Notes: generated by a model from the letters alone, not told the origin. A stretch of 64,000 nucleotides of DNA from an uncultured Candidatus Saccharibacteria bacterium (GCA_964630525.1 CAZVUY010000001.1:114901-178900), one strand, 5' to 3'. Numbered from the stretch's first letter, positions 1 through 56,640 are shown. A program made the numbers and translations.

Positions 1-308
1 CTAGTATTATCAGTGTGATAATAGCCACGATAGTATCTGTCCTTATTGCTGGGGGAATTTTCATACTATCACCTTTCAAAAAAGAACCACATCACCATTA
101 GGAGCACTGCAGCAACAATGCCCAGCACGGTGGTATATTTTATCTGCGGATCTTCCTGGATTTTCATTCAAATACCAACCCTTTCTTGACGCATTATATC
201 ATAAAAATTAGCAAAAACAATGACGTGTATTTATTATTGTTTGCCCAATTAAAACATTCAGTATATTGATGCTAAAAATCTTGTTTATGTTATAATTGGG
301 TCATGAGT

Positions 309-379
309 CCCGTAGTGAATTTTGGCTATAATTCCTACGGAATCAGTTACAAAATAACTTAGCCAAAATCTACTACGGG
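309..379 (+). repeat. ~70-bp miniature element with ~18-bp terminal inverted repeats (copy 1), ending directly at the ATG of the downstream gene
   Basis: The left arm cccgtagtgaattttggc and the right arm gccaaaatctactacggg are reverse complements with 2 mismatches. An inner palindrome attcctacggaat is present. A near-identical copy lies at 11843-11909. Confidence 0.6.
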
Positions 380-745
380 ATGAGAAACGATATAGATACA
401 AACTATTTCAAGGGGAAGCTCGAGGAGGAGTTGGTTTTGGTAGAAAAAGAGCTCAACGATGTTGGACGTAAAAACCCCGACAACGCCAAAGACTGGGAAG
501 CGGAACCGGCAGACTTAGACACCAGCACCGCTGATGATAGTGAAACCGCCGACAAAATAGAAGAGTTCGAGGGAAATACCGCCATTCTAAAAGAGCTCGA
601 AATCAGATACAACGATATCAAAGACGCTCTCGCTAAAATAGAAAAAGAGGAATATGGTTTTTGCGAAGTTTGCGGTGCGCCAATCGAAGAAGATCGTCTC
701 AAAGCCAATCAGGCCGCCCGCACTTGCAAAACTCATATGCAATAA
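380..745 (+). CDS. DksA/TraR-family C4 zinc-finger protein
   Basis: The C-terminal motif CEVCGAPIEEDRLKANQAARTCKTHMQ (CxxC...C) and an acidic coiled-coil N-terminus are typical of DksA/TraR. Confidence 0.6.
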   Translation: MRNDIDTNYFKGKLEEELVLVEKELNDVGRKNPDNAKDWEAEPADLDTSTADDSETADKIEEFEGNTAILKELEIRYNDIKDALAKIEKEEYGFCEVCGAPIEEDRLKANQAARTCKTHMQ

Positions 746-5588: not shown

Positions 5589-6013
5589 TGGAGAAGGGGG
5601 CATTGAAGCCCCATCCAGATAAGTTTTAACAATGTTTCTACGCGATATATTCAACTTTGTTTCCGCCGATGAGACGGAAAATTCGACGCTTGTTCTTTAA
5701 AATTGAAGAAACAAACAAACGTCTAGTTTTTTAGTTCAAACATAGAGTAAACACTTTCCATGTCCTAAGTCCGATTTATTACAATTATTTCTTCCTCCGG
5801 ACGAAGAAAGAATAACCGTCGTTTAGGCCTGAACTTAATTAAGCTCGAGCGTAAGCGAAAGCAAAGTCATTGACTCCAAAGTATGGAGAAACAACGCCTT
5901 TTGCTTTTGCAACAATGTTTTCAGCATTTATTGCTTTCTCACCTTTTTAAGAGTTATGAGAGCTCTACCGCGCACATTGTCAAAGATCCTACCTGTCTAA
6001 ACCTTTCATCCCC
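5589..6013 (-). ncRNA. ssrA: tmRNA (ssrA)
   Basis: The minus strand begins GGGGAUGAAAGGUUUAGACAGG, matching the tmRNA 5' consensus GGGG.UG....GGUUU.GACAGG. The 3' end is a T-arm GGGGC-UUCAAU-GCCCC followed by the acceptor CUUCUCC and discriminator A, giving G3:U70 alanine identity. CCA is not encoded. The internal reading frame runs ...GUC AAU GAC UUU GCU UUC GCU UAC GCU CGA GCU UAA. The gene lies directly downstream of smpB on the same strand. Confidence 0.8.
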
Positions 6014-6117
6014 AAACTATTTTTTTAATTACATTTATTAAAAAAATAATTTGGGGCCCGAGGAGCACATGACGAGGGCCTGCTCTCAGGAACTTTTGAT
6101 TTTTACCTCTATACTAG

Positions 6118-9138: not shown

Positions 9139-9215
9139 CCGCCCTTAGCTCAGTTGGTTAGAGCACAGAGCTTATACCTCTGGGGTCCCACGTTCGAATC
9201 GTGGAGGGCGGACCA
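9139..9215 (+). tRNA. tRNA, anticodon loop CUUAUAC gives anticodon UAU (Ile, AUA-decoding type)
   Basis: The cloverleaf has acceptor CCGCCCU/AGGGCGG, D-arm GCUC-AGUUGGUUA-GAGC, anticodon stem CAGAG/CUCUG, T-arm CCACG-UUCGAAU-CGUGG, discriminator A and an encoded CCA. The 1:72 pair is C:G, which is unusual. Confidence 0.6.
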
Positions 9216-11296: not shown

Positions 11297-11641
11297 TTAT
11301 TTTACGTGAGAGATTATTTTTTTGATGATTTCTGGCTTATCAGCTGCAATTTCCGATAGCATCTTGCGATTCAAAACAACATTTTTCTTTTTGAGAGCCC
11401 CCATAAAAACACTGTAAGAAACTCCGCTCTGGTCGAGTAAAGCGTTTAAGCGCACATTCCAAATACGACGAAAGTCACCTTTCTTGTCTCGGCGGTGAGC
11501 AAAAGCGTAGCTACCGGCGTGAGAGATGGCTTCATACGCCTGGCGTTCCTTTTTTGAGCGTCCAAAACGATATCCTTTTACTTGTTTTAAAACATTCCTT
11601 CTGGTTTTGAGTGCATTGACTCCTTTTTTGACTCTGGTCAT
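11297..11641 (-). CDS. rplT: 50S ribosomal protein L20
   Basis: The full-length sequence matches L20 (MTRVKKGVNALKTRRNVLKQVKGYRFGRSK...). Confidence 0.95.
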   Translation of the reverse strand: MTRVKKGVNALKTRRNVLKQVKGYRFGRSKKERQAYEAISHAGSYAFAHRRDKKGDFRRIWNVRLNALLDQSGVSYSVFMGALKKKNVVLNRKMLSEIAADKPEIIKKIISHVK

Positions 11642-11656: not shown

Positions 11657-11842
11657 TTAGAGATTGTTCAAGAAGCGGCCCCTTTCTTTATTAGACATAT
11701 CAATCAAAACTGATCGGCGTTTGCCGAGGGTAGTCCTGGTTCTGTTTTTTGCATTAAAATGGTTCTGGCCAATCTTGCGAGTTACCAATTTGCCATTTTT
11801 AGTGACTTTTATGCGTTTAGCGAAAGACTTGTTAGTTTTCAT
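11657..11842 (-). CDS. rpmI: 50S ribosomal protein L35
   Basis: The L35-like sequence is MKTNKSFAKRIKVTKNGKLVTRKIGQNHFNAKNR.... The track ORF extends 18 codons upstream via a TTG into the inserted repeat element. The ATG at 11842 abuts the element end. Confidence 0.8.
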   Translation of the reverse strand: MKTNKSFAKRIKVTKNGKLVTRKIGQNHFNAKNRTRTTLGKRRSVLIDMSNKERGRFLNNL

Positions 11843-11909
11843 CCCGTAGTAGATTTTGGCAATTTTTAAAAACGATTCCGTAGGAATTATTGCCAAAATT
11901 CACTACGGG
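11843..11909. repeat. ~67-bp miniature element with terminal inverted repeats (copy 2, inverted relative to copy 1), inserted between infC and rpmI
   Basis: The sequence cccgtagtagattttggc...gccaaaattcactacggg reverse-complements to about 85% identity with 309-379. In both copies the ...ACTACGGG end is followed directly by a gene ATG. Confidence 0.6.
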
Positions 11910-11923
11910 ATTCATGGGCTACT

Positions 11924-12439
11924 CTATTTTGCACGTTCTATTATAGATGTCAAGCCTTTAATGCTTTTTTTGGGCGCCTCGGCAATCCGGAAATCTTCAG
12001 ATATTAGCTTGAAAACTCGGTCGAGTCTTTCCTTCAAAAAAGCCTCATTCATATATTTGGTGCGGCCCGGTAGAAATAGGTCTATCTTGACCCTGTGACC
12101 CTCTTTTAGCCATTCCGACGCTTTCCTGGCCTTCAAGCCCAGATCGTGATCACCAGTACCAACCTTGATCTGTAAACTTTTGACTTCTACCGTCTTGCTT
12201 TTACTTTTGATTGACTTTTGTTTCTTATTTTCAGCATAGAGAAACTTGCCATAATCAACTATTTTAGCGATCGGGGGATTGGCGTTTGGAGATATTTCCA
12301 CCAGATCAAGACCAAATTCCATCGCCTTGTCCATCGCTTCCTTAAAGGGGGTAATACCGAAATTTTCTCCTTGCGGCCCGATCAAACGAACGTTTTCCGC
12401 CCTAATGAAGTTATTGATTCTGTGTTTTTCGTTGGCCAA
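11924..12439 (-). CDS. infC: Translation initiation factor IF-3
   Basis: It carries RINNFIRAENVRLIG and the ...DLVEISPNANPPIAKIVDYGKFLY... core. The start is non-ATG (TTG in the track), as is common for infC. Confidence 0.9.
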   Translation of the reverse strand: MANEKHRINNFIRAENVRLIGPQGENFGITPFKEAMDKAMEFGLDLVEISPNANPPIAKIVDYGKFLYAENKKQKSIKSKSKTVEVKSLQIKVGTGDHDLGLKARKASEWLKEGHRVKIDLFLPGRTKYMNEAFLKERLDRVFKLISEDFRIAEAPKKSIKGLTSIIERAK

Positions 12440-15738: not shown

Positions 15739-16743
15739 ATGAAAAATAAAAAGACCTCACCCCAAAGAAAACTAGGTCCCAAAAAATCATTGGGGCAAAA
15801 TTTTTTGAGAGATCCGAAAATTTTGAAAAAAATAGTTGATTTCGCTCAAATCGAAAAAGGTGACACTGTGGTAGAGGTTGGACCAGGCGAAGGAGGCTTG
15901 ACGGAAGAGTTGTTAAAACAAGCAAAAAAAGTAATCGCGATCGAAAAAGATGAGGAGCTAGCAAAAAAGCTGGAAGATAAATTTCGGGATCAAATTCTAA
16001 ACTCAAGACTGAAGATTTTGGTGGGAGATATATTGGAGCTGAGAGCTGAGAGCTTAGAGCTTGAAGGAAGAAATCAGAAAAACAAAAACTCTGAGCTCTT
16101 AGCTCCAAGCTATAAGCTTGTCGGCAATATTCCGTACTACATTACCGGCGCTTTGTTTAAAAAATTTTTGGAAACAGAGCAACAACCAAAATCGATCACC
16201 TTTGTTGTCCAAAAAGAAGTGGCGGAGAGGATAGTGGCCCGAAACCCCAACTCCGCTAAAGCTTCGCGGGGCAAGCAAAAGGAAAGTATTTTGAGTATAT
16301 CGGTCAAGGTATATGGGGAACCAAAATTTGGCGGAGTCATCAAGGCTGGTAGCTTCTTTCCTAAACCAAAAGTTGATTCGGCTATTTTAAGTATTAGGAA
16401 TATCAGCAAAGAAAGATTCAATGATCTAATCCCCCCAACCCCCTTTACTTTAAAGGGGGAGGAGGCTCGAATAGAAAATAATTTTTTTGAAGAAATAACT
16501 CCCCCAACCACTCTTACAACAAGAGGGGAGTTGGAAAATAAATTTTTTGAAATATTAAAGACTGGCTTTGCTCACAAAAGAAAGCTGCTACTCCGCAACC
16601 TCCTCGACGCAAAAGTGTCAAAGGGCACCTTTGACACTTTTGCGATTAAAGAGGTTTTTGGAGTTTGTGGGCTGGATGAGAAAGCGCGGGCTGAAGATTT
16701 GAGAGTGGAAGACTGGCTAGCGCTTACACAAAAACTGGCCTAA
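15739..16743 (+). CDS. rsmA: 16S rRNA adenine dimethyltransferase RsmA/KsgA carrying two in-frame insertions
   Basis: It has LGQNFLRDPKIL...VVEVGPGEGGLTEEL and NIPYYIT. It is about 334 aa against about 260-290 typical. The first insert is the palindromic AGCT element at 16035-16119. The second is a ~65-bp x2 tandem duplication at 16431-16560. Confidence 0.85.
   Translation: MKNKKTSPQRKLGPKKSLGQNFLRDPKILKKIVDFAQIEKGDTVVEVGPGEGGLTEELLKQAKKVIAIEKDEELAKKLEDKFRDQILNSRLKILVGDILELRAESLELEGRNQKNKNSELLAPSYKLVGNIPYYITGALFKKFLETEQQPKSITFVVQKEVAERIVARNPNSAKASRGKQKESILSISVKVYGEPKFGGVIKAGSFFPKPKVDSAILSIRNISKERFNDLIPPTPFTLKGEEARIENNFFEEITPPTTLTTRGELENKFFEILKTGFAHKRKLLLRNLLDAKVSKGTFDTFAIKEVFGVCGLDEKARAEDLRVEDWLALTQKLA
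16035..16119. repeat. AGCT-rich palindromic miniature element inside the rsmA reading frame
   Basis: The left arm is ggagctgagagctgagagcttagagcttgaagg, an A-rich loop follows, and the right arm is ctctgagctcttagctccaagctataagctt. The same family occurs at 22327-22420, 22831/23247, 23857-23925, 53065-53115 and 55205-55280. Confidence 0.65.
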
Positions 16744-22326: not shown

Positions 22327-22420
22327 GGAGCTTGGAGCTAAAAGCTTAGAGCTTAGAGGAGAAAAATAAAAAATGATATAATTTTGAAAGCTTACAGCTC
22401 TAAGCTCTAAGCTCTAAGCT
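22327..22420. repeat. AGCT-rich palindromic miniature element filling the intergenic spacer exactly (stop-to-start)
   Basis: The sequence is ggagcttggagctaaaagcttagagcttagagg, an A/T loop, then aagcttacagctctaagctctaagctctaagct. Confidence 0.65.
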
Positions 22421-23250: not shown

Positions 23251-23871
23251 ATGAAAAATGCTACTCAAGAATTTGTACCGATAGACGATGTGCGCGATGG
23301 GATAGCCATCCTCAAAAGCGGTGGGATGCGCGGCGTACTCATGGCTTCAAGCGTAAACTTCTCCCTCAAGTCAGAAGAGGAGAGGCAGGCTATCCTATTC
23401 CAATTCCAAGATTTCTTAAACTCTCTGGATTTTTCGGTCCAGATCATCGTCCAATCAAGAAAGCTCGATATCAGACCCTATATCGCCCTTTTGGAGAACA
23501 GGCACAAAGAGCAAACCAACGACCTGATGAAAATCCAGATCGAACAATACATTGCTTTCATTAGAAGTTTTACCGAATCGACCAACATCATGACCAAAAA
23601 CTTCTTCATTGTGGTCCCATATGATGCCGCCATCATCTCTACCAAAACAGGGTTGTTGGACAATTTGCGAGGCAATAGGAACAAAGAGACAAAGGAAGAA
23701 GATTTCGAAGAAAGGCGCAATCAGCTCGAGCAGCGAATGGGAGTGGTAGAGCAGGGCTTGGTGCGCTCCGGCGTCAGGGTAGCCAAGCTCGGTACCGACG
23801 AAGTGGTCGAGTTGTTTTATAAGATATTTAATCCGGGAGAAACGGAGAAACCAATCAAGCTTGGAGCTTGA
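23251..23871 (+). CDS. VirB4/TrbE/CagE N-terminal-domain-like protein (separate ORF)
   Basis: The motif IDDVRDGIAILKSGGMRGVLMASSVNFSLKSEEERQAILFQFQDFLNSL resembles the N-terminal domain of VirB4-family ATPases. Its stop codon lies inside a palindromic element. Confidence 0.5.
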   Translation: MKNATQEFVPIDDVRDGIAILKSGGMRGVLMASSVNFSLKSEEERQAILFQFQDFLNSLDFSVQIIVQSRKLDIRPYIALLENRHKEQTNDLMKIQIEQYIAFIRSFTESTNIMTKNFFIVVPYDAAIISTKTGLLDNLRGNRNKETKEEDFEERRNQLEQRMGVVEQGLVRSGVRVAKLGTDEVVELFYKIFNPGETEKPIKLGA

Positions 23872-23925
23872 AGCTAATAGCTTAGAGGAAAAAACTTTAA
23901 ACTCCAAGCTCTTAGCTCTAAGCTT
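23857..23925. repeat. AGCT-rich palindromic miniature element separating the two VirB4-like ORFs
   Basis: The sequence is aagcttggagcttgaagctaatagcttagagg, then aaaaaactttaaa, then ctccaagctcttagctctaagctt. Confidence 0.65.
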
Positions 23926-41461: not shown

Positions 41462-41524
41462 ATTTTATGCTACATGATATACTTCTCCAGAATTTGCATT
41501 GTGGCAAAATTGGCGGCGGTTGGA

Positions 41525-41684
41525 GGTACAAATCTCTAAGCGGCGGTTCACCTTGGGTGGATTTTGACATTAAATCAAGGAAGTGCCGGTGCCATCTTTC
41601 TAAGAGGGATTGCTAGCGCTCTCCTCAGAGTAATGTTTTGCTTTCGATATAAAAATTGAAAGTGCCGCTTAGAGATTTGTATCC
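41525..41684. other. ~160-nt element closed by a 20-bp perfect long-range inverted repeat (ggtacaaatctctaagcggc / gccgcttagagatttgtatcc); candidate structured RNA or miniature element
   Basis: The arms lie at 41525-41546 and 41664-41684 in the pilB-ruvB intergenic region. The interior contains GAAGUGCCGG and GAAAGUGCCGC motifs. Confidence 0.3.
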
Positions 41685-41747
41685 CTAATTCCCATTATTC
41701 ATAAAAGGTTGCCTCGGGCAATTTTTTATGTGAATAACTTTTCATTC

Positions 41748-55280: not shown

Positions 55281-56640
55281 TTTGCAATTCTTCTCTGGCC
55301 ACACTGGCGTCATCCCACTCCTCTTTGCTTCCATTTGGCCCCATGATGTAAGGGTCAGTACCTTTGCCAGTGATGAGTACGGCTACGTTTTCGGATTGTT
55401 TATCGTAAGCGAGCTCCTTAGCTTTAGAGAGAGCGAGTCGGATAGCCTCTCTTCTGTCCATTATTATTTCCACTTTATTTTTTTCTGTTATACCGCCAAC
55501 CATCTCCTCAACTATTTTTTTCGGATCTTCATCGTAAGGGTCTTCGTTGGTCAGTATTATCTGATCGCAATATTGGTCAGCTACTTTGCCCATCTCTGGT
55601 CTTTTCCAAGTATCGCGGCCACCGCCAGTGTTGCCCAGTACACAAATCAATTTATGCTTGATTCCGGATTTTTCTTGAGACTTGTATGTTTCGTAAACTG
55701 CTTTTAGTGAGTCTGGAGTGTGGGCATAATCGACTATCACCTCAAAGTTTTGTCCGACCGCTATCTTTTCCATTCGACCTCGCACCAACTCTATTTTTTC
55801 GAGGGCGGTTTTTATTTTCTGATCTTGGATACCGGCAAATTTGGCGAAGGCGATGGCTCCTAGCATGTTGTAGATACTGAAAACGCCAGGCAAATGGCTA
55901 TGGATCACGATTTTGCCGACTTGGAACGAAGAACCATTGTTGTCTGTCTTTACATTGACCGCATCGCGCAAAGAATAGGGGATTTTGTTTTTAATATTGA
56001 GGGCCAAAAATTTCTGACCCTCTTTGTCATCGGTGTTGGCGATAATTACCGGTTCAAAATAATGGGAAGAAAAATTTTGAGAAGCGTGGGAACCATTTAA
56101 GGAGGAGCTTTCAAAATTTTTCTTCCCATTATTTTCTAGTTCTTTAGCAATAGACAGCTTGGCTTCAAGATACTTTTGATACGAACCATGAGATTCTACA
56201 TGTTCCGGTGCCAAGTTGGTGAAGATCAAAGCGTCGGGGTAGGTAAATTTGTGGCGGAACTGTTTCGCACCCTCACTCGTCATCTCAATGACGGCGTGGC
56301 TGCAACCTTTTTTGATAGCGTCAGAGAGGAATTTTTGGATGAAGAAACGGCCGGGCATGCTCATCTTGAACAAGTTTCTTTCTGACCGCCTACCAATTTT
56401 AAATCGCAAAGTATTCATGAGAGCCGTTTGAAAGCCGGCTTCTTCTAGAATGGCATTTACCAGTTCGGTCACGGTGCTTTTGCCTTTGGTGCCCGTCACT
56501 CCGACGACGATTATTTTTTTACCCGGAAAGCCGTAGAGAGTAGCGCCGAGCAAAGCCAGTAGATAATGATAAATCGGCTGACCGAGTCGAAAGATTTTTT
56601 TTGGTATTATTTTTTTTGCCAATTTAAGCAAACTATTCAT
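55261..56640 (-). CDS. murE: Mur ligase family protein, MurE-like
   Basis: It has the P-loop VGVTGTKGKSTV, the central domain and the C-terminal ILTNEDPYDEDP...ITGKGTDPYIMG pattern, like MurE DNPR...AGKGHE. Confidence 0.65.
   Translation of the reverse strand: MNSLLKLAKKIIPKKIFRLGQPIYHYLLALLGATLYGFPGKKIIVVGVTGTKGKSTVTELVNAILEEAGFQTALMNTLRFKIGRRSERNLFKMSMPGRFFIQKFLSDAIKKGCSHAVIEMTSEGAKQFRHKFTYPDALIFTNLAPEHVESHGSYQKYLEAKLSIAKELENNGKKNFESSSLNGSHASQNFSSHYFEPVIIANTDDKEGQKFLALNIKNKIPYSLRDAVNVKTDNNGSSFQVGKIVIHSHLPGVFSIYNMLGAIAFAKFAGIQDQKIKTALEKIELVRGRMEKIAVGQNFEVIVDYAHTPDSLKAVYETYKSQEKSGIKHKLICVLGNTGGGRDTWKRPEMGKVADQYCDQIILTNEDPYDEDPKKIVEEMVGGITEKNKVEIIMDRREAIRLALSKAKELAYDKQSENVAVLITGKGTDPYIMGPNGSKEEWDDASVAREELQRLRAES

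Follow-up and report, generated by a model that had tools for sequence, protein, structure and literature searches.

Two copies of a small palindromic element lie directly against start codons in a 64,000-nucleotide stretch of DNA catalogued as an uncultured Candidatus Saccharibacteria bacterium (this whole stretch is referred to here as the window). One copy precedes the gene for a DksA/TraR-type zinc-finger protein and the other lies between infC and rpmI. The locus raises the question of whether the element is a mobile insertion or a native leader of these genes and, if it is an insertion, why it stands where translation begins and whether it has a function for the host there.

The two copies in the window

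A reading made from the sequence alone (hereafter the sequence-only reading) had described both copies, each with 18-nt arms, an inner palindrome and an ATG directly following (at 380 on the plus strand and at 11842 on the minus strand), and its coordinates and sequences hold (Table 1). The palindrome is one pair longer than was first described (T308..A380 and T11910..A11842). Similarity between the copies, put at about 85%, is indeed close, but the figure is about 83% when gaps are counted and a bit of flank is included; the 18-nt arms are identical in the two copies. Four matches to the arms were observed in the window, compared with 0.18 expected from shuffled sequences. The predicted folding energies are −36.8 kcal/mol for copy 1 and −32.9 kcal/mol for copy 2, with z scores of about −6 to −7.5 on either strand, and in the predicted fold the two bases 5′ of the stem are the partners of the A and U of the real AUG. 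Copy 1 is also present, at 100% identity, in an independent public assembly (L144) and is thus no assembly artefact.

Neither an arm search allowing three mismatches nor the covariance model run with its filters off found a third copy in the 64-kb window. A match at 6010–6056 was rejected as an extra copy, as it is the hairpin just past one end of the tmRNA gene. A search of the whole window against Rfam gave nothing at the gathering score, and at E <= 10 the region 200–500 gave only microRNA-hairpin noise (E > 0.4). No intrinsic terminator was called by a scan at either copy, where the stem is followed by AUGA..., and no promoter was called inside the element by a consensus scan of both copies. 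A canonical Shine-Dalgarno sequence is absent.

The open reading frames downstream of the copies encode the DksA/TraR zinc-finger protein and L35, with IF3 encoded upstream and L20 downstream of L35. A few nucleotides upstream of the left rpmI ATG there is a promoter-like site in the 3′ end of infC. The homologues of IF3 and DksA group the window with Zambryskibacteria-like Paceibacteria. A crude count found a Shine-Dalgarno-like sequence in only seven of 54 long open reading frames of the window and a leaderless-type −10 hexamer in 21 of the 54. In a mechanical list of open reading frames rpmI was stretched into the element (11657–11896), with a TTG start at 11896.

Table 1. Positions of the element copies, their parts and the adjoining genes in the window.
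Feature	Position	Strand	Remarks
Element copy 1	308..380	+	Including terminal T..A pair; 71.6 bits, E = 4e-15 (covariance model)
Copy 1 core as first described	309-379	+	Without terminal T..A
Copy 1 arms	309-326/362-379	+	CCCGTAGTGAATTTTGGC / partner GCCAAAATCTACTACGGG, 18 nt
Copy 1 P1 stem	308-329 paired with 360-380	+	Folding, arm match
Copy 1 hairpin 1	331-343	+	ATTCCTACGGAAT
Copy 1 hairpin 2	about 345-359	+	
Copy 1 internal TATAAT	327-332	+	
Element copy 2	11842..11910	-	Including terminal T (11910) and A (11842); 70.2 bits
Copy 2 core as first described	11843-11909	-	Without terminal T..A
Copy 2 arms	11892-11909/11843-11860	-	CCCGTAGTGAATTTTGGC / partner GCCAAAATCTACTACGGG, 18 nt
Copy 2 hairpin 1	11875-11887	-	ATTCCTACGGAAT
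Extended -10 promoter TGtTATAAT of dksA-like gene	288..296	+	6 nt upstream of left ATG; sequence read
Left target copy ATGAG, original dksA-like start codon	303..307	+	TGAG 304-307; direct repeat with 380-384
dksA/traR-type zinc-finger gene	380..745	+	PF01258; right TGAG 381-384
Left target copy ATGAA, original rpmI start	11911..11915	-	8 nt past infC stop TAG 11926-11924
rpmI (L35)	11657..11842	-	Start codon rebuilt by element; right TGAA 11841-11838
rplT (L20)	11297-11641		Downstream of rpmI
infC (IF3)	11924-12439		Upstream of rpmI
Promoter-like TTGACA-16 nt-CAAAAT in infC 3′ end	11926..11953	-	Consensus match only

Several other repeats were seen in the window. A palindrome at 16608–16644, CGCAAAAGTGTCAAAGGGCACCTTTGACACTTTTGCG, possibly lies within a coding region; its core, TGTCAAAGGGCACCTTTGACA, is the short palindrome found on both sides of a Y1_Tnp (IS200/RAYT-like) gene in L033, and it is probably a REP-type repeat of a different mobile system. 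The 25-nt inverted repeat at 56056–56135, AAAATAATGGGAAGAAAAATTTTGA, is perfect, has its arms 30 nt apart and is unrelated to the element (the family model gives only 16 bits, E = 0.13). Another 25-nt inverted repeat, at 41520–41688 (TTGGAGGTACAAATCTCTAAGCGGC / GCCGCTTAGAGATTTGTATCCCTAA), is 88% complementary with 119 nt between the arms. Short-repeat arrays of the AGCTTAGAGCT type, inverted around an AT-rich spacer, occupy 22329–22420 and 23858–23924. The region 9139–9215 holds a tRNA-Ile gene (anticodon TAT), followed directly by tRNA-Arg (CCT).

A family of foldback elements in Patescibacteria

A scan of one genome per GTDB species with the two-arm pattern CCCGTAGTNNATTTT...AAAATNNACTACGGG returned 118 elements in 113 stretches, and the family as a whole has more than 118 members. 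The sources are nearly all CPR MAGs, which comprise Zambryski-, Nomura-, Kaiser-, Yanofsky-, Vogel-, Nealson-, Wildermuth- and Moranbacteria, Paceibacterota and MAGs labelled Saccharibacteria; no match was found in viral contigs. The single MAGs JBBTWE, JBBUBJ and JBAYKK each hold at least 8–12 exact-pattern copies or stretches. On 100 loci the covariance model contributed no more than about a dozen further variants, whose ends are compensated (for example CCAG..CTGG and CCGG..CCGG). Compensated CCTG..CAGG ends, minimal hairpins of 36 nt and long forms of 130–145 nt also occur.

The element is small and non-coding, 56–80 bp in length (about 60–80 bp). Its conserved ends, YCCCGTAGTGAATTTTGG...CCAAAATCTACTACGGGR, form a 21-bp stem (P1) and carry 16–18 nt of conserved sequence, but the invariance of the arms across the family is partly a matter of ascertainment, since the search pattern fixed their outer 16 nt. 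The outermost pair is Y..R, being C..G in 90 copies and T..A in 25, with covariation between C-G and U-A. Of the 118 copies, 110 keep a tandem G.U/A.C mismatch at positions 9–10 of the stem, in either orientation. The five inner base pairs of P1 covary through all four pair types, with 148 both-side-changed cells compared with 44 in shuffles, and 95% of the inner P1 cells are paired, compared with about 43% when the partner is slid. The interiors (25–55 nt) have no sequence relation between subfamilies and fold better than shuffled sequences (mean z = −2.2). Two hairpins are predicted in 71 of 119, giving a three-way junction, and the loops are often UUCG-like or GNRA-like. Such covariation of stem and hairpins is odd for a classical DDE-type MITE and hints at a single-stranded DNA or RNA stage.

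Our literature search found no relevant paper on the element, on its arm sequence, on MITEs in Patescibacteria/Parcubacteria or on leaderless genes in CPR bacteria. We conclude that this is a previously undescribed, MITE-like family of elements from Patescibacteria.

Target duplications and empty sites

Direct repeats of 3–5 bp flank 100 of the 118 copies, compared with about 15 in a shuffled-pair control. With the Y..R pair counted in the element, repeats of 4, 5 and 3 bp number 61, 26 and 13, whereas random re-pairing of the flanks gave about 8, 0.7 and 6, respectively. The repeated sequences differ from copy to copy (TTGA/TCAA in 38, TGnTA in 14, TGAA in eight, TGA in five, and others). In the window the duplicated bases are TGAG at copy 1, where the junctions read ATGAG-T(element)A-TGAG, and TGAA at copy 2, where they read ATGAA-T(element)A-TGAA. 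Two other placements of the ends were considered and rejected: CCCG..CGGG with a 6–7 bp duplication, and AC..GT with a 2–3 bp duplication. In about 17 copies, of which L023 is a clear case, the repeat does not end in A, which favours a terminal Y..R pair and a duplication of 3–5 bp. The length of the duplication is not fixed, which counts against the explanation preferred below. Tandem insertions at the regenerated target were found in L002, L049 and L044.

Empty sites are present in relatives whose proteins are 72–98% identical. At rplC the empty site of L095 (87% amino-acid identity) reads TTTTTTAT followed directly by ATGAAATTT, or ...GGCGTTTTTTAT followed by ATGAAATTT in a longer read, and the filled sites of L133, L127 and L129 read ...TTTTTTATTGATGAAT, the element and then ATGAAATTT, the left flank being ...ATGAAT. 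L145 and L146, in which the DksA-like protein is 98% identical and the first 24 nt of the gene are the same, have TGtGATAGAAT-tagatc-ATGAGAAACG, with the junction ...tagatcATGAGAAACG, at the site that is filled by copy 1 in the window. The promoter at this empty site (TGtGATAGAAT-N6-ATG) is homologous to the TGtTATAAT of the window, which is the original leaderless promoter of the dksA-like gene. At rpmI the relative L141 has an infC–rpmI spacer of only 9 nt (TAG-ggtggtcat-ATGAAAACA, junction TAGggtggtcatATGAAAACA), as expected if copy 2 interrupts this junction, which the sequence-only reading had claimed. In L139 and L140 (IF3 98% identical) the element is also absent at rpmI, and an unrelated 51-nt spacer is found instead; judged from these sequences, the infC–rpmI junction is one that turns over fast. 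That spacer (2017–2067) contains CCACTAATGG twice, and the start of rpmI is identical. The rpsB and pilD sites are empty in relatives and filled in L054/L135 and L056/L130.

Two further sites indicate which bases the element contributes. At a glycosyltransferase gene the empty site of L036 reads aGTGGAAAA and the filled sites of L018 and L122 read gGTGGAT, the element and then ATGGAAAAG, so that GTG has become ATG. The tig site of L023 and L137 has the same pattern of a left GTG and a right ATG, in a comparison that for tig rests on filled sites alone. It follows that the final base of the element provides the A of the start codon now in use; in the reverse case, a C..G-ended copy in L009 has turned ATG into GTG. 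At the dksA-like gene, similarly, the ATG at 380 consists of element base A380 and the duplicated TG. The element had been taken to be inserted immediately 5′ of the start codon. An ATG does follow it, but the insertion lies inside the codon, between nucleotides 1 and 2, and supplies the A.

Terminal inverted repeats, target duplications that vary between copies, many non-homologous sites, empty orthologous sites and small, multi-copy, non-coding units together meet the operational definition of a MITE in all but a parent IS, and the identification of a miniature inverted-repeat element in the sequence-only reading is upheld. In our view it is highly probable that the element is a mobile MITE-like insertion with target rules of the T(T)GA/TGnTA type.

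A scan of about 1 Mb of flanking loci, which did not extend to whole genomes, yielded neither an autonomous parent nor a transposase bounded by these ends, and the chemistry of transposition is therefore unproven. Solo or kilobase-spaced arms were sought as a sign of a parent, and only variants of 35–145 bp turned up in the loci. L029 contains a related-looking inverted pair, CTGCCCCGTAGCTAACTTTTTCC / GGAAAAAGTTAGCTACGGGGCAG, at 96–120 and 762–790 (685 bp apart), the second arm of which lies inside what looks like an interrupted tRNA gene. It was rejected as the ends of a parent, being of different sequence and having its second copy in this tRNA-like region.

RAYT/IS200-like Y1 transposase genes (PF01797) are present at L110 5844–6536, L078 1814–2419, L032 2292–2903, L049 207–737 and L033 1452–1994. 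Clustering of open reading frames identified this Y1_Tnp family in the five loci, each gene with its own flanking palindromes, and a RAYT was rejected as a demonstrated partner of the element.

Target preference

Of 117 elements, 103 (about 85–90%) adjoin a −35 box (TTGAC), an extended −10 box (TGnTAnnnT) or a start codon. The sequence-only reading had proposed targeting of start-codon-proximal sites; this stands for the subfamily found in the window, but the wider family lies mostly at −35 and extended −10 boxes. In 45 of 234 cases the outward flank opens with a −35-like TTGAC and has a correctly spaced TAnnnT behind it, compared with 0.03% of random positions. About 29 elements adjoin an extended −10 box (G, then TGnTAnnnT) and about 20 a start codon. 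The arms are oriented randomly with respect to the promoter (24:20 in the −35 class and 4:8 in the −10 class), and in the −10 class the arm provides a TTGnnA hexamer, some 18 nt before the −10 box.

At apparently orthologous −35 promoters in L020, L038 and L078 the arms are the same and the two-hairpin interiors are entirely different, which could reflect either fast compensated evolution or repeated insertion at one hotspot. These members, at L020 2801–2867, L038 2238–2303 and L078 7659–7724, stand at one conserved promoter, GTTGACTT..ATAAAGGACAGAATATCCTTA.

We propose that the element is a non-autonomous foldback transposon of the MITE-like kind, widespread in Patescibacteria of the Paceibacteria/Parcubacteria type, which integrates at T(T)GA or TGnTA with a duplication of 3–5 bp, mostly 4 bp. 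In these compact genomes such sequences occur mostly as ATGA start codons and as −35 or extended −10 boxes.

The start-codon subfamily

Both window copies belong to a subfamily that is defined by the interior ATTCCnnnGGAAT and by terminal T..A bases. The sample of this subfamily comprises 43 matches, 17 from the genome scan and 26 from a subfamily-specific metagenome scan, and represents 24 distinct site/gene combinations in about 15 different genes: dksA, rpmI, rplC, rpsB, rpmE, gatC, pyrG, tig and dnaJ, together with genes for a PIF1-like helicase, a prepilin peptidase, a LOG-family protein, a glycosyltransferase and small membrane proteins. All 43 matches directly abut the ATG of a real open reading frame, with the interior pointing one way relative to the gene throughout. 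The wider search thus bears out, for this subfamily, both the positional bias towards start codons and the common orientation that two copies alone had suggested.

At 12 of the 24 sites TAnnnT precedes the left (ancestral) start by exactly 6 nt, compared with 2.8% of random ATGs. This implies that the target genes are leaderless and that the element lies between +1 and +2; on this sequence evidence the subfamily would usually sit between +1 and +2 of a leaderless promoter. In 21 of 22 distinct subfamily sequences, (T/A)ATAAT has one constant place within the element, 17–18 nt from the left TGA, and is confined to the sense strand. It had been suggested that the element might carry a promoter or RBS-like function. 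No such function has been shown, and the absence of a canonical Shine-Dalgarno sequence does not help the second option, but the internal TATAAT does exist, and it is plausible that it is a promoter which the scan did not call. We also considered a conserved upstream open reading frame, or a coupling rule, starting at the left ATG. This was rejected: frames 2, 1 and 0 (mod 3) occur in 11, eight and two copies, the stops fall at differing places and the length is not kept.

In the mechanism that we favour, the subfamily entered leaderless or tightly coupled genes by insertion between nucleotides 1 and 2 of their start codon. An ATG is restored at the 3′ foot of the hairpin by the duplicated TG and the last A of the element, and the original start codon and promoter stay at its 5′ foot. 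Since the old promoter is conserved at 6 nt from the left ATG, we infer that it is still the one in use, and transcription would then still begin at the old +1. If so, the mRNA would begin AUGAnU-(hairpin)-AUGAn, and the complete element would form a 5′ hairpin leader in which the AUG has its A and U paired. Entry of a ribosome beside such a stem is hard to picture, so that processing, unwinding or an internal start seems to be needed; we infer that expression would require the stem to be opened or processed, or transcription to start internally from the element's TATAAT. The copies may now be kept by the host as a leader/operator module that gates initiation, which is likewise an inference.

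Conservation and rival explanations

Orthologous start-codon copies are 95–99% identical between species in which synonymous sites are saturated. At the helicase site, copies from three species are identical at 70–72 of 73 positions (26–28 of 29 in the interior), compared with 35–42% identity at the fourfold-degenerate sites of the adjacent gene, which are saturated, and 63–77% over the upstream 60 nt. The inner-stem variant follows the site and not the genome (GGCAAT at helicase and gatC, GACTAT at rplC and GGCTAT at the membrane protein), which argues for inherited old insertions rather than repeated new ones. At orthologous rpmI genes there is a compensated flip, from GGCAAT..ATTGCC in the window to GGCTAT..ATAGCC in L098. 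The left ATG is kept while the preceding and neighbouring bases vary. These comparisons point to a host-level constraint on the subfamily, but an active element of very high site specificity could also produce near-identical orthologues, by inserting repeatedly or by conversion. Whether the start-codon copies have a host function rests on conservation alone, without transcript or protein data, and we place our confidence in it just short of an even balance.

What this conservation means is best seen against the other explanations. The copies could be purely selfish or neutral MITEs with no host function that persist only as harmless insertions, the start codon or promoter box being restored by the duplication. 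The target duplications and empty sites, the random orientation of the arms in the −35 and −10 classes, and the wholly different interiors of the −35 class at L020, L038 and L078 all sit well with this. The start-codon copies do not: their near-identity across species with saturated synonymous sites, the single interior orientation at 24 of 24 distinct sites, the conserved left ATG amid varying neighbours and the double changes that maintain stem pairing would be left without a cause, and we think it unlikely that selfish persistence is the whole account. The single orientation is explained if the element is a mobile promoter/operator module in which the left xTGAxx serves as the −35, the 17–18-nt arm as spacer and the TATAAT/AATAAT as the −10. 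Support for this comes from the constant position of (T/A)ATAAT in 21 of 22 sequences on the sense strand only, from its spacing of 17–18 nt to the left TGA and from the TTGnnA, about 18 nt from the −10, that is given by the arm in the −10 class. However, the consensus scan called no such promoter because the −35 matches at only three of six positions, the original −10 is still found 6 nt before the left ATG in orthologues, so that the old promoter seems to be in use, the L052 variant keeps the position without any TATAAT, and the conservation of both arms is left unexplained. We hold this module to be no more than a minor possibility. Equally tentative are its corollaries that transcripts start in hairpin 1, without the 5′ arm and with the AUG open, and, with the same reserve, that the AATTCC-N3-GGAATT palindrome over the start site is a repressor operator.

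Two further explanations concern the origin of the element. It could be of the REPIN type, with a single-copy RAYT (Y1 HUH transposase) that moves it in trans by way of a folded intermediate of single-stranded DNA. Its architecture is like that of published REPINs (Bertels & Rainey, 2011; PMC3116915). GTAG/CTAC lies close to each end, and Y1_Tnp genes occur in five of the fetched loci. A conserved stem mismatch is typical of structure-specific recognition, and the mismatch kept in the stem would fit this. Nevertheless, all five Y1_Tnp genes are flanked by their own, differing palindromes of about 20 nt and not by this element, and its arms are not themselves palindromic REPs. Transposition of the IS200/IS605 type through single-stranded DNA is not known to make target duplications, unlike this element, which makes variable ones, and we consider an origin of this type improbable. 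The possibility that the element is a native, vertically inherited cis-regulatory leader RNA (an r-protein leader or riboswitch-like), with no insertion at all, was the one that the sequence-only reading had named as refuting its own. The old insertions are conserved in sequence and structure at orthologous sites, far above neutral, and many of the genes function in translation (rpmI, rplC, rpsB, rpmE, gatC, tig and dksA), as such a leader would predict, but the flanking duplications are specific to each copy, the sites are empty in relatives with 72–98% identical proteins, the same arms stand upstream of promoters in either orientation and Rfam gives no match. A native leader is thus already contradicted as the origin of the element, and we assign it very little weight; as a present function it overlaps with the explanation that we prefer. 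That explanation, a mobile insertion and a host function taken jointly, is in our judgement the likely one overall, and the interpretation with which the analysis began was essentially right, with the amendments described.

One specific form of it is that the start-codon subfamily is an exapted mobile 5′ leader which, by dividing the start codon of leaderless mRNAs and doubling it at the two feet of a very stable three-way-junction hairpin, would bring translation and housekeeping genes under a new, shared control of initiation. This is speculative, as is the gene set that it would cover (rpmI–rplT, rplC, rpsB, rpmE, gatC, tig, dnaJ, pyrG and dksA). RNA processing at the base of the stem might regenerate a leaderless AUG, or ribosomes loaded on the 5′-terminal AUG might be passed over the stem to its duplicate.

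Comparison with known systems

The Correia/NEMIS elements of Neisseria and the enterobacterial ERIC/IRU elements are small, non-coding, multi-copy hairpin MITEs with terminal inverted repeats and a target duplication. They are found in promoter and 5′ regions, form long RNA hairpins if transcribed and can supply promoter hexamers. The present element resembles them in its small size, its multiple copies, its terminal repeats and duplication, its location in 5′ and promoter regions, the long RNA hairpin predicted for its transcript and its hexamer-supplying ends. It differs in that its duplication is of 3–5 bp at T(T)GA or TGnTA and not TA, in its base-precise placement at the −35 box, at the extended −10 box or within the start codon, in an interior that forms a covarying three-way junction, and in the conservation of one subfamily across species inside the start codons of essential genes; there is no sequence relation.

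REPINs consist of two invariant sequences of about 16 nt in inverted orientation, about 70 bp apart, with a variable spacer that keeps its hairpin through compensatory changes, and they persist vertically over long periods (Bertels & Rainey, 2011; PMC3116915). The element shares with them the inverted blocks of about 16 nt, the compensated hairpin spacer, the extragenic location, the persistence and the GTAG-containing ends. In contrast to REPINs it has clear and variable target duplications, non-palindromic arms and specific promoter and start-codon sites, and the RAYT-like genes in the loci carry other flanking palindromes.

IS elements of the IS1380 family (e.g. ISEcp1) have ends that begin with CC and 4–5 bp direct repeats, and this is the only IS family known to us with both features. 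The likeness of the element in these respects is a lead only; no transposase gene or full-length element with these ends was found. Stable hairpins flanked by matching codons are a feature of the bypass or shunting systems of T4 gene 60, the mitochondrial 'byp' elements and the CaMV leader. The duplicated AUGAn at both feet of the stem recalls these systems, but the element lies at the very 5′ end of the message and not within an open reading frame, the frame and length of the upstream open reading frame are not conserved and there is no evidence for bypass.

Two other classes were considered and rejected. The IS200/IS605-derived PATEs have subterminal hairpins, no terminal inverted repeats and no duplication and lie 3′ of a fixed tetra- or pentanucleotide, whereas the element has terminal inverted repeats and variable duplications on both sides. 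Integron attC sites, with their R''/R' core sites (RYYYAAC...GTTRRRY), form arrays beside an intI gene, whereas these copies are dispersed singly at promoters and have the ends CCCGTAG...CTACGGG.

Implications

The choice of target is unusual among bacterial MITEs, and it is found in CPR bacteria (Patescibacteria), which have tiny genomes, few known regulators and no genetics. The base-precise landing of the element makes it a natural marker for promoters and leaderless genes in these uncultured organisms. It also bears on annotation: gene callers can mis-start genes at filled sites, where the rebuilt ATG masks the ancestral start. A hairpin of −33 to −37 kcal/mol set directly against the AUG is tolerated by essential genes, and apparently conserved by them, which poses a concrete and testable question about how translation starts in bacteria that are rich in leaderless genes. 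If the exapted leader proves to be true, it would constitute a transposon-distributed regulon in CPR bacteria.
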